DNA of 64,000 nt from Tubiluchus corallicola (lineage: Eukaryota > Animalia > Priapulida), in the NCBI GenBank assembly GCA_030141605.1, contig JAQGDQ010000099.1:513194-577193 (forward strand), given 5' to 3'. Positions 54,001 to 60,260 of the stretch are shown piece after piece. A model generated the notes under the pieces. That model saw only the letters and a list, made by a program, of their open reading frames with translations, had not been told where the DNA came from and ran no database searches. Within the stretch, counting starts at the first letter, position 1. Each line of letters begins with the position of its first letter. The translations under genes and the position numbers were made by a program.

Positions 54001-57000
54001 TATGATGCATAAAATTCCAAAATTCACCATCTATACCTGGCAAATAATATCTTTGTTTGTGAAGCGCACTACCATGCGATACTTTGGCGTATTATACTTG
54101 TTCTTGTCCTGCACTACTAAGCGTTTACGGGCATAGTAGTCAGTTTTCCCTTCTATAAACAGAGACAGTAACATGAGTCTCATAAGAACTTTAGTAGAAT
54201 ACAATTTAACCAACTCAATAGGTAAAAACAGAATTTCAGCATAGTAATAAATCTTCAACGTACAACTTTTACATTGATCTGAATGTGACAGCTTTTTTCA
54301 GCTGAGAGTCCATTGATTATTAACTAATAAACTAATTATTGTAAAAACTGTATAAAGTAATTTGCAAAACAGCAACAATTGCATATATCATTTATATTTG
54401 CTTTGTTCTATTTCAGATATAAAAGTAACAGATTTGTGCGATGCAAGTTAAGTACATGCAGAAAAAATGAAGAAAGTGTAGGTACAATGGATTGCTGACA
54501 TTACCTCGTCTTCTCTTAAATTTCACTTGGTACCTCTTGAAGTACGCCTTGTTCTTCACAACTTTTACAAACCCCTGTAAGAAAGTATGTACACAATTAC
54601 ACAATCTATTGCTGAAACATGCAGTGTGTCGAAATGTTCTAGTCCCTGGCACACGAATAAGATCTAATGTTGTATGAGCAGGAAATAAGGATGGAAAAAA
54701 TGAATTTCGAAGTAAAACATGCTCAAAGTCTAACAAAACAAATACAAACTCAGAAAATACAAATCACTAAAAAAAGGAATTTTAACAGCAATGTTTATGA
54801 AGATTAAAACAGCAGGAACAAACAACAAGAAAGACAGGATCGAGACCAAGTTTTTTAGGAACTTGATAAAGATAACTGTACCCGTAATCCGCTTAGTTTT
54901 CATCTGCAGAGGATGTGTTCATTTAATTATGGGTCGGCCATTTTACTGGTTGGCAAAATAATTCAGCATGTGCCCAATGAGGAGCATTTAACGTAATAAT
55001 GCGCTCACTCCAGTTATTTTAATTTTTAATGTCTGCCAACACTTAACTGTATTTGTTAATTTTTGCATCTAAGCCTGTTGTTGTTGTTGCTGTTGCACCT
55101 TGTTGCATCTTAGATGCCTACTTGGCATCTAAGCCGTAACGGTACCTTTTTATGAAGTCAATATATATCACAGTTTTAGACATATCTACTCCCGTGACAC
55201 TTTTTTTTTCAAAATTAAACCAAAATTTATCGAGACAATATACAAAATCACACATTATCACTTCATTCTTATAGCTGTGTTGTGAGAGTATATCATATGG
55301 AGCCCATGCAAAGTGAATTTTTCATGGATGATGTTGATTGTATGTAATACAGAAACATTAATCTGGTAAGCCCAAAATGGAAAGGCCAACACCCACTCTA
55401 GGATACGACCTGTAAATTTACCTCAATAAATTTATAAAACTGAATGTACTAGTATATAATTATAAGTGATTTTATTTATTCTGTTGGAAAACTTTTCCGA
55501 CATATCAGTCGGTAGCAATACTAACAGTTATTGCAAAGACAATTATATGGTTTTTGATGATTCTAAACCAATTTAGTGATTTAATTTATCAAGATGCATT
55601 GGTAGCTGAGTTAATCTTGTTTCTGCCCAACATAGTCACCAGTTATTCCCCAATTAGTTAGTAAGTCAGCCTCCCAGTTTACGTTTATCAATGAGTCAAT
55701 TACCCAGTCACTCAATGACTTAGCCAATAAATCAGCCAGTTTAAGAATTTGAACAGTTACAGAGTTAGCTACACAAATGCTCAGAAAACCAATCAGCTAG
55801 TCAATCAGTCAATGAAAAAGTGATATAAATAAGTCAGAAAGCCAGGTAGTCAGTCAAGAAATGAGTCGGTGAGTTAAACAGAATAAGTAGTCTATTAATC
55901 AGTATATTATAGCTAGTTACATGCTTAGCAACTCGGAATGTCACGTATCGATAATAAAAACTTTGCACAGAATACAATGACTTAGAGCAGTAGTACCTAA
56001 ACATTATTTTTAGACAATGCAGTGTCAGTATGATCTCATACAATGTCTAGCATCTGTTTCTATTAACGTTAACTTTAAATGACTTTCATTTTGACAAAGA
56101 CAGTTAGTTTTTTTCTTGAAATTTTCAAGGCAAATTTGGCTAAATAAGATTAAAAGTGAAGAAAACTATGTAAGTTGTGAGTTAATCAGAGAAGATAAAT
56201 GACATAATACCATTCCGTTTCACTTATTCATTTATTGAACTAATCTGCTCTGCTAATGTTCCAAGCATTTTATACGCAACAACTGCTTGTAGTGCGCTAA
56301 TCAATTGAAACAGTAATTTTGATGTTTTTAGACATCAATGCAATTGCGGTACACTTCGCTTAATTAATTCACCTTGGTTTGAAGCTAAATGGATTTTCAT
56401 TAAGAGGCTAGATTTATAAACCAAAGAAACCTATTAAGTAGTATTAAAGTACATATTGTCCAAAAGTGGATTTTAGTAGTAACTGTCTGCCAAGTTAAGA
56501 TTCATCATTCATTTAGTTAAGGCATTAACAAGCTCGAGCACAACTGTTTACAGCAAGAATTAAAGTGTTAGTTTAATCTAATTAAGTATGCAAAACGAAT
56601 ATGCAAGACCGTAGAATGCACAAGACATGTCCAGTATTGTGTTTTAGTGAAATTTTTTGGAAGATGCATGTGAATATCTTGTTTGAGTTGGTAAAATGTA
56701 GCATTTTTGAATAGTCACTGTTCTTAAGTTTGCGGTGCAGTGTTTCCAATGCATGTCACATTTCAGCAGCGATATAGAAATTTCGTCATGACCGTTACCA
56801 CTGTGTCTCGTTAGGATTTTGAAAAAATACAAAGTTAGGATTAAATGAAAAAAATACAAAGTTGGAAAACATGTTTAAAACAAAGATGCTGTTCCAGCTC
56901 AAGTTAAAATGCTGAACAATCACGTGGTCTTGTCTCAATTTTGCAGTCTTCACAGTGCACAAGTTGGATTTATAAAGCAAAGTCTGGATTTAATAAACAA

Positions 57001-60000
57001 GAGATTTTACGAGCTCAAAGGAGTAGTAGGTACAATAAGCGACTGGTTTATAGCTACTAAAAGCTTTCTAAAAACACAGGAAAAGACCAACATCTTATGC
57101 ATGCATAGCTGAGGTGACAAAGTAATCCCACTTGTCCAGTTGCAGTTCATTTTGTACAATCTTGCCATCTAATGGCAGCTATGATTTCAAAAGAATGGAC
57201 AAAAGTGAGTTAAAGCAAACCTCAAATCTCTGTACTGAAAGAAAAGCAAGAAGTTGAGTCATGCATTGCATTTTCATGGTACAGTCAAACCTTGTTATAA
57301 TGCCAACCTTGCTTAATGTCCACATTTTTTTGTAAAAAAAATGTTTATATTTGCACGGACATGTATGCATTACAGCATATCGTTATAATCCCAAATTCAT
57401 TTAAAGCCAACTTTTTTTGCAGTTCCAAAGTAGGCAGTATAAAGAAGTTTGACTGTAATTGTGTACCTGCATTCTTAACTTTTCATATCAACTAGGAATT
57501 GGCAAGAATGTATCATGGATCTGGTGACAGCACTTGTCGCTGTATGTTCTACCTTGTTTATTCTTTTTTAAAAATGTTTATATTTTGAAATTTTGTGCTG
57601 TACTTCAATTCAATCTTTTGGTTGTAATGATGATAAATACACTTATTAAACTTATTATAAGAGCATATACAGTGTTTTTAAATTTTTATGAAACAATTTA
57701 TTAAATTCTTGTAGCACAGCACAGCCAAACTGGACCTAGCCCAAAAATGATTTCAAATTAATTTTAATCTGTTTGGTCTATATAATTAGTTGCAATAGCA
57801 CTCTAGAGCACAGAATATTGGTAAACAGCAAGTCAAACTGTATTTATCCTTGATAGAATGTTAGCATTATAACGCAGCTTGAACTTACTTCGAAAAATTC
57901 AAAAAAACTTAGCTACGTAAGTACTTAAGGTACACGTGCTTATATTTCTCATAACCACTGAAGAGGAAGTTTTTGCTATTTCAGTGAGCACTGCAAATCT
58001 CATGGTGAAAAACATTAACAGCTTAAAAAGGATAAAAATGCCCTTTCGAAAACAAACTACACCTATATTAATTATTATCCTCAGCATGACAGGATTTCAT
58101 CAATGCCATTAATTCTTAATAAATGTAACTGAAGACTAACTTGCAGAATTAATTGTAGTGGATGGATTTTATTTTTACATTCTGACCAAGCAAAATCAAA
58201 CATAAGTGACTAGCTTCCTTAACGAAACCAATTTTTAACATAAAAGCGTTAGAAAACGGAATAGCTTGCATTACAGAAACACAAGCCAAAGACTCATTAA
58301 ATTATTATTTTCATTTTCTTTTTGCATCAAATTAATCACAGAAATCACAGTTATCTATAGGCTCTCTACAGAACTCTAGTCTCTAGTCATTTGAAAATTA
58401 AGAGATTAGTAGAACAAGGATATATTGAAAAGCAACGACAAAATATATAAAACAAAGGCAGCATCTTAATGGAAGCATTTTTAAGTTTCCAGTAGTTTCA
58501 GTATAAAATGGCAATCACAATAATTAGCCTATGAATTAATTTTACACTTTTAACTCAACTTTTAACATTGCCAATCTACGTGTTAACTTTTCAAACACTT
58601 ATTTTTCTAATATAAATGAATAAGCAAAGCTATCACAGAATTAAGCTGGATATAAAATTAAACTGTTCCTGTTGAAGAATGTTGTAGAAGGGACGTGAAA
58701 TGTCTAATTAAGCTCTGCAGACCAAACAAATAGTTATCGTCTCTGCTAGTAGCTGGAAAGACATGAGCAAAATCAATCATGCAAACTTTAACACACAAGC
58801 TGTCTGAAGCATCACTACACGGTGTAGAAGCCGGACTACTTTCGTACACTATTAACACTGAACTTGCATAAAAATGGTATTTTCTTTGTTCCAAAAACCA
58901 CTTATTAATATTGTCCAATCGTCGCAATATTTGTTTAACAACTGTGTCATGATACGTGACAGTTGGACATGCACTCAAATAACTTTGCAATGCTGGAACC
59001 ACATCGATCTCTTTCAGACTCTTTCCCCAGCTTTTATCAAGCGAAAGATAAGCGGATGTGACACTATTATATACTTTCATGCCCAGAAAACGGAAGCCAA
59101 TTTGCTGTGCCTTTGGGTATTTGCTGACTTCATAAGCAATCTTTTCGGGATCTGCGTCGGGGTCGTTGGTAATCGCACCAATTTTTATGTCCAATACAGA
59201 TGGCTTATCAAAACAATGAACGACATCACGAAGTCTTAGGTAGGTTTCTTCAACACTGCCATAATTTATGTGTGTTATTCCACCATGCTCTGGCAGAAAT
59301 TCCCTAAGTTTGAGAAGCACGCTATCATGGCACTCGGAAGCGAACACTTCATTGTAAAAGTTCATTTCTCTTGTACCTCTGGGCGGAGGCTGCAAATGTT
59401 TTAATATCCAACCATCTGTGGTCTGCAACATTCCAAGACCTGTTTTGCCTTTGCCATGAAAATGACCAGCTATCTGGTGTGAAAGTGGTGATAACCCAAT
59501 TGGAAGAGGAAAGGAACTATGTTCTTGACTATCAGTTTCATCAGATTGATTTGAAATATGGCAACCCTGTTGAACTTCACTAGTTCTGTGGCAACTCTGC
59601 AGTAACAGTAAAGAAAATATTGAAGTGGATGCTCATTTTTTTGGTCACTTACTACTCACTGCTGTTATCCAAGTGTTTCTTAAGATTCAGGAGTCACAAT
59701 ATGAACCCAATGTCTACAGGTCAATGTCTATAATGTTGATGGGAATTAAATGAAGTTTAGGTAGTTTGCTGTTAGGTAGTTTTTGTGATTTGTTCATTAA
59801 TTATGTGAGTTTGTGTCCGTCTCCATTATTTCAAGATCAGGTTTTTTGACAATGATTTTTGCATAAAACCACCTAAAAGTGCACGGCGCCATTGAATTTC
59901 ACTCTGGTGTTCACCATCACTACAAAAACCATCTAATTTTCGGCAATGATATGCATTAATTGTACTTAATTTAAACTAGTAACACATTCTATCACTATGT

Positions 60001-60150: not shown

Positions 60151-60260
60151 AGTAGAAAGTTTCCTCTTTTATTTGAGGAGTTTGTTTCAGGTAGCTTCGG
60201 CTGGAGGCTGACTCACCGGAAAAGGATGTTAAGTGCGATTACTGCGCCGCCTATAATTTC
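60141..60260 (-). promoter_or_regulatory. TCT/5'TOP-type transcription start and ATG-only first exon (RPL5, shared with IPMK)
   Basis: Minus strand reads TCCTTTTCC (60226-60218), then ~75 nt of ATG-free leader, then ATG|GTAAGTA (60150-60141). The region just upstream is locally CpG-rich. Confidence 0.8.

Follow-up and report, generated by a model that had tools for sequence, protein, structure and literature searches.

In the cholinergic locus, the gene for VAChT is nested in the sense orientation within the first intron of ChAT and uses a common first exon; the two partners serve a single pathway, and conservation of the arrangement is wide. Here, we describe a locus of the priapulid Tubiluchus corallicola in which the ribosomal protein gene RPL5 and the inositol phosphate kinase gene IPMK likely share one TCT promoter and one first exon that ends in ATG, a reading to which we assign a probability of roughly three in four. 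The sequence analyzed, referred to as the window, is the whole stretch of 64,000 nucleotides at positions 513,194 to 577,193 (forward strand) of contig JAQGDQ010000099.1, GenBank assembly GCA_030141605.1; all positions below are counted from its first nucleotide. The shared promoter and start codon had been proposed in a first-pass annotation made from the letters alone, and the sequence and homology tests reported here lend support to that proposal.

Published relatives of this layout differ in what the two genes have in common. In insects, Su(var)3-9 and eIF2gamma have 79–84 coding residues common to both proteins, an arrangement backed by cDNA across insect orders (PMC1435931). In grasses, an rps14 copy lies in an intron of sdh2, and alternative splicing lets it use the first exon of the host together with its start codon (PMC1543663). 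The first-pass annotation had cited shared-first-exon genes as a known class, which these two pairs bear out. In humans, RBM12/CPNE1 and more than 20 pairs encode unrelated proteins from one promoter with shared 5′ exons, and the competition between the polyadenylation (poly(A)) signal of the shorter gene and run-through is named as a likely control (PMC2568002).

RPL5: Anatomy of the Host Gene

A check against the window sequence recovered every feature of the first-pass annotation in place on the minus strand. RPL5 has eight coding exons, which encode a protein of 297 amino acids once the ATG at 60150 is included:

60150-60148, minus strand: RPL5 exon 1, coding part (ATG), predicted start codon
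54505-54574, minus strand: RPL5 exon 2, phase 0, lacking only the Met; distal acceptor AG at 54576-54575
54152-54037, minus strand: RPL5 exon 3
52605-52471, minus strand: RPL5 exon 4
51476-51274, minus strand: RPL5 exon 5
50230-50053, minus strand: RPL5 exon 6
49184-49090, minus strand: RPL5 exon 7
48148-48055, minus strand: RPL5 exon 8
48013, minus strand: RPL5 poly(A) site, where a contig of run X2 ends in poly(A)

A single contig of run X2, ~92% identical to the window, spans introns 3–7 (five of the seven) and carries the poly(A) tail at 48013. Run X2 is RNA by guess, and its contigs were taken at a likeness threshold of 88%, at which exon 1, exon 2, and IPMK are uncovered, a blank that is no evidence either way. 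Across 260 residues, the protein shares ~81% identity with the best animal uL18 match; its best matches are from tunicates, with nearly equal identity to other animals. The matches of RPL5 carry PF17144 and PF14204, and IPMK itself carries the IPK domain, so the two products are unrelated.

Exon 2 opens directly after the acceptor at 54576-54575, and the earlier claim that it needs a methionine from upstream holds: a Met followed by exactly one residue precedes the N-terminal motif in 82 of the 95 homologs that have this motif. Likewise, the ATG-ended first exon that the first-pass annotation ascribed to animal RPL5 genes agrees with vertebrate rpL5, which has a polypyrimidine initiator and an exon 1 that closes with the AUG (PMC554972).

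No small nucleolar RNA was found in the RPL5 introns at the Rfam gathering score, and the whole window gave 0 Rfam matches. High-copy repeats lie in the introns and upstream of the gene, at 52500-54500, ~57400-57460, and 61200-61700, with a depth of up to ~1400 versus ~4 in run X1; the segment 57449-57380 is 81% like 52692-52761.

IPMK: An Intact Kinase Without a Usable Start of Its Own

Between the ATG at 60150 and RPL5 exon 2, on the same strand and within the probable first intron of RPL5, sits a complete coding exon for IPMK:

58658-59596, minus strand: IPMK coding exon, 939 nt, 312 codons plus stop, intronless, phase 0
59597-59621, minus strand: IPMK proximal splice acceptor, 11/15 pyrimidines, versus 9–12 of 15 in the seven RPL5 acceptors
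59462-59476, minus strand: IPMK G-loop motif QIAGH, exon residues 41–45, upstream of the ATG at 59431
58168-58603, minus strand: candidate IPMK poly(A) signals, a variant AATAAG at 58603 and AATAAA at 58173, with more at 57702 and 57562

The single phase-0 exon behind a strong acceptor is thus as first described. Its translation matches the Pfam family IPK (PF03770) with an E-value of 7.6e-46 and 156.9 bits, against a curated cut-off of 22.2, and is closer to human IPMK structures (E = 9.6e-63) than to IP3K or IP6K (~5e-11 for IP6K). A fold search with the predicted model returned human IPMK at ranks 1–9, with template modeling (TM) scores of 0.92–0.94 normalized by target. The solved cores of human IPMK align starting at exon residue 38; in the model, residues 3–27 are disordered, and residues 31–40 are confidently folded, with a mean predicted local distance difference test (pLDDT) score of 89. 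In an alignment of 18 sequences, the window IPMK retains each of the 30 invariant columns, and the G-loop, catalytic Lys, DxKxG, SS, and IDF motifs are intact, with Q41, G44, H45, K66, D136, K138, G140, S245, S246, D275, and H278 invariant. The exon encodes an intact IPK-family kinase, a putative multikinase. Neither of two protein searches returned a close relative, the best matches reaching 45–53% identity.

The first in-frame ATG of the exon, at 59431, is codon 56 and lies, as had been noted, after the conserved motif; a start there would cost the protein 55 residues, including the G-loop. The QIAGH motif occurs in 199 of 231 homolog rows (two overlapping searches, each identifier counted once), and Q41, G44, and H45 are invariant in 18/18 aligned sequences. 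The matching G-loop of related kinases touches ATP (PMC10897400), and equating QIAGH with this ATP-contacting loop is our own reading. Since IPMK has kept its conserved G-loop, the loop must be translated, and a start codon upstream of 59596 is required.

The exon may instead be an ordinary nested gene, with a separate promoter for IPMK or a further 5′ exon situated in 60147-59597 or outside the window, or with a non-AUG start or a short protein from 59431, leaving exon 1 to RPL5 only. Same-strand nesting is common in animals (PMC8527503), a moderate donor exists at 59659, and the exact QIAGH is missing from 32/231 homolog rows, some of which are fragments or variants. However, 59659 does not appear in the best 25 of the 47 donors with an in-frame ATG, and on the donor matrix used below no other ATG donor of 60147-59597 exceeds 1.0. 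An unspliced transcript would reach the out-of-frame ATGs at 59541 and 59457 before 59431, and the product from 59431 would be without the G-loop that the window IPMK conserves. The CpG observed/expected ratio, 0.61 window-wide, peaks at 1.32 in 60201-60400, around the predicted transcription start, with no peak in 59401-59800. We consider an ordinary nested IPMK gene unlikely.

Another account holds that this IPMK is a silent recent copy, or that a one-nucleotide assembly error hides its own ATG, the candidate being 59541, which is one frame off and lies near the start position of the Priapulus protein. Against this, the frame is open, the invariant residues are all kept, the likeness of the main frame to Priapulus reaches to about residue 22 (best stretch 22–257), and a run X1 contig spanning 59313-60068 differs by one other letter and 15 gap letters. 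Either form of this account is highly improbable.

The same contig (number 7 of run X1) is, on balance, 15 nt shorter than the window, and its 15-letter gap would preserve the frame if it falls within the N-terminal tail of IPMK.

At its other end, the sequence fits a terminal exon: no GTRAG donor occurs from 59596 to 58100, and hexamers resembling poly(A) signals lie downstream of the stop codon.

One Predicted First Exon for Two Proteins

The elements proposed to start both proteins, together with their rivals, are as follows:

60217-60227, minus strand: TCT-type initiator/5′ terminal oligopyrimidine (TOP) tract, 9/10 letters matching the vertebrate rpL5 initiator (PMC554972, Table 2)
60148-60225, minus strand: predicted shared exon 1, a 75-nt ATG-free leader followed by the ATG at 60150-60148
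60140-60147, minus strand: donor D2, GTAAGTA directly after the ATG, phase 0, 9/11 consensus letters, equal to the best RPL5 donor
60209-60216, minus strand: donor D1 (CCG/GTGAGT, the slash marking the splice site), within the leader and 9 nt behind the predicted start, 7/11 consensus letters
57166-57234, minus strand: rival RPL5 ATG exon, 69 nt, ending in ATG behind an acceptor with 14/15 pyrimidines, with a weak GC donor (6/11 consensus letters); judged unlikely

The tract TCCTTTTCC starts at 60226, and we predict that transcription begins near 60225, at the C of its TCT. When D2 was joined in a script to the near acceptor, a 313-residue IPMK resulted, and to the far acceptor, a 297-residue RPL5, each behind the 75-nt leader. 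Among 22 ATG-G[TC] sites in 64000-54575, only the one at 60150 pairs a GT donor with both a TCT-like tract and a leader free of ATG, in keeping with its earlier designation as the best start. The combination of a TCT-like tract, no intervening ATG, and ATG-GTRAG occurs once in the window, counting both strands. Simulation of 2000 regions of 5.8 kb produced it in 11, a frequency to be read with the pattern having been picked after the site was seen. The components are commoner singly: the 10-mer of ATG and donor is unremarkable, being present in 22/100 shuffles of the window, and the vertebrate rpL5 initiator pattern has 13 matches in the window at one mismatch or less.

In 64000-59597, 47 phase-0 donors have an ATG upstream in frame, and of these the donor at 60147 ranks second (best 25 of 47 considered). 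Between IPMK and exon 2, the 55 such donors have a top score of 2.0, and in the best 25 of these, every one except 56213 would add residues absent from homologs. All sequence and homology tests made here point to 60150 as the predicted start of both proteins, and none to a better start for either, although this support is indirect.

Two other candidates were rejected. The donor that outranks 60147 (best 25 of 47) lies at 62563; it is an acceptor-like site of the plus strand read on the opposite strand, and nothing else supports it. The weak ATG-GTATTA at 56213, which had been named as a possible separate start for RPL5, fails in this role, with 4/11 consensus letters and no TCT tract.

The first-pass annotation had overlooked both the second donor, at 60216, and the acceptor-preceded ATG exon with a GC donor at 57234-57166, which together allow the promoter to be shared without the ATG. 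RPL5 would then be started by splicing a 9-nt non-coding exon 1 (donor 60216) to the 57234-57166 exon, and the longer exon 1 (donor 60147) would serve IPMK. In favor of this route, D1 is a good donor, no acceptor in the intron is richer in pyrimidines than the one before 57234, and 47% of mammalian ribosomal protein genes have their AUG in exon 2 (PMC554972). This route nonetheless requires a non-canonical GC donor in a highly expressed gene, its ATG has T at −3, where the ATG at 60150 has A, and in vertebrate rpL5 the AUG ends exon 1, as noted above. Spliced straight to either IPMK or RPL5 acceptor, D1 yields open reading frames (ORFs) of 23 or 5 residues only. A shared promoter with separate start codons is, in our estimate, quite unlikely.

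The ATG of this rival exon (57166-57180, minus strand) stands in a short inverted repeat between the 3′ end of IPMK and RPL5 exon 2. The repeat may resemble a CTCF-binding motif.

On the plus strand, at 60332-60416, a frame of 28 codons runs from an ATG, ~105 nt away from the TCT tract, to a donor-like site, possibly the start of a divergent, head-to-head gene, and an acceptor-flanked, exon-like piece of 43 nt follows at ~62567-62609. The candidate at 60332 has no Pfam match, and the Atlas gave only unnamed short clusters; for this reason, it is not used as evidence.

Proposed Splicing Choice and Origin, and Tests of Conservation

In the mechanism that we propose for the shared exon, donor 60147 would join the near acceptor at 59596, and the transcript would be cleaved at a poly(A) site within the intron, to give IPMK, likely as a minor product, or skip to the far acceptor at 54574 to give RPL5, likely as the major product. 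The near acceptor and the intronic poly(A) site would thus compete with the far acceptor. By analogy with the published cases, the layout likely arose when a copy of IPMK free of introns, probably retroposed, was inserted into the RPL5 intron. Exon 1 holds only the Met, and so an inserted phase-0 exon would gain a promoter, a leader, and a start without foreign residues.

Trans-splicing would offer the IPMK acceptor a different partner, namely, a spliced leader, received either after intronic cleavage or on a transcript from its own promoter. Several animal phyla use spliced leaders, whose addition can look like a shared first exon (PMC8527503). However, an AUG-free leader would give IPMK no start, and a literature search, judged by titles, found no paper on spliced leaders in priapulids. 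To our knowledge, a spliced leader that ends in AUG is known only from flatworms. We regard this route as very unlikely.

Several points weigh against a shared exon 1 at 60150 and against its proposed origin. In RNA, no junction leaving 60148 was seen. On a rough donor matrix, D1 outscores D2 (7.5 versus 5.7), although by consensus letters the order is reversed (7 versus 9 of 11); this matrix separates sites poorly, because real RPL5 donors, which score 1.8–7.9, reach as low as 1.8. The strong acceptor before 57234 is unexplained by a start at 60150. The search for a start covers the DNA up to window position 64000. A poly(A) remnant of retroposition was not seen by eye. Finally, in Priapulus caudatus, which is the closest relative with a name in the IPMK tree, IPMK lies on a scaffold of 379,208 nt and the single RPL5 found on one of 196,449 nt; in Stegodyphus, the two genes are also on separate scaffolds (87,888 versus 1,981,669 nt).

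Conservation of the nesting in relatives, which the first-pass annotation had raised, was not found for the gene copies at hand. In a tree of 30 rows picked from the matches, the window IPMK groups with that of Priapulus caudatus and with the Logan record P0002 (support 98/94), a single-gene placement in line with a priapulid. With the two genes found on separate scaffolds in both Priapulus and Stegodyphus, the nesting seems not to be ancient. A metagenome scan kept 80 IPMK-like loci of 201 confirmed, and none of the 80 matched RPL5 by tblastn, a weak test because the loci are distant and mostly 1–3 kb. Similarly, none of 1154 longer candidates carried a fused IPK and RPL5 annotation, which is also a weak test. 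Overall, the nesting looks lineage-limited, which fits insertion.

Two protein records from relatives have unusual N-termini. In P0002, residues 1–15 are Phe-rich, with Gln at the end before the IPMK-like part, and the next Met stands just ahead of the G-loop; this N-terminus looks like acceptor read-through, and the relative may also draw its ATG from an upstream exon. The Priapulus RPL5 model P0146 has a 22-residue extension before the usual Met, which may be leader read in frame; by back-translation, its first residues could come from a TCT-like tract ~55 nt before the Met, a guess.

Other Features of the Window

14618-18362, plus strand: inosine-uridine preferring nucleoside hydrolase gene, multi-exon, with PF01156 in three exons

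Long low-complexity coding exons occur at 5460-7230 (minus strand; Arg/Ser-rich and Pro-rich) and 43581-44321 (plus strand; Ser/Lys-rich), with no Pfam match. A stop-to-stop ORF of 113 amino acids at 62003-62344 (minus strand) also has no Pfam match; by eye, it could be a decayed piece of a Tc1/mariner-like transposase.

Implications

If the junctions are real, RPL5 and IPMK would be the minimal kind of shared-exon pair, in which essential proteins of unrelated families have nothing but a start codon in common, and an inserted gene copy could work at once without a promoter or start of its own. In practical terms, annotation would report a truncated IPMK beginning at 59431, and a knock-out of RPL5 exon 1 would abolish both genes.

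Mammalian IPMK binds and stabilizes mTORC1 (PMC12467090), and TCT promoters and TOP leaders are main mTOR targets (PMC8047918); real junctions would put IPMK behind such a promoter and leader. Speculatively, an IPMK mRNA bearing the RPL5 TOP leader would place the translation of a TOR cofactor under the control of TOR itself, like that of a ribosomal protein. One choice of splice and poly(A) site would then split the output of a ribosomal protein promoter between ribosome building and inositol-phosphate/TOR signaling and would be a built-in feedback loop, and IPMK more than a mere passenger. ATG-only first exons of ribosomal protein genes could then be general landing pads, giving any inserted phase-0 exon what RPL5 would give IPMK. 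We hold this extension to be tentative and rather doubtful because no conservation was found.

Comparison with Known Systems

The architecture is already known for several gene pairs, and the RPL5–IPMK pairing is new to the literature searched: no report of the pair was found there, most subscription papers and supplements being outside its reach, and among the papers listed on RPL5 and IPMK together, none concerned gene structure, as judged by title and the start of the abstract. The cholinergic locus has the sense-nested gene and the common first exon proposed here, and differs by its same-pathway partners and wide conservation. In RBM12/CPNE1, the shared exons are non-coding and the two genes have separate start codons, unlike the proposed RPL5–IPMK exon, and a ribosomal protein host is absent from Table 1 of that source (PMC2568002). 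The Su(var)3-9/eIF2gamma pair has the same layout (PMC1435931), whereas at the locus described here, known from sequence, the Met alone would be shared, and the host is of the TCT/TOP type. In sdh2–rps14, the ribosomal protein is the guest, and the shared exon encodes a mitochondrial targeting peptide (PMC1543663); here, the ribosomal protein gene would be the host that gives promoter, leader, and Met. By analogy, then, the RPL5–IPMK layout would work like the published shared-first-exon pairs.

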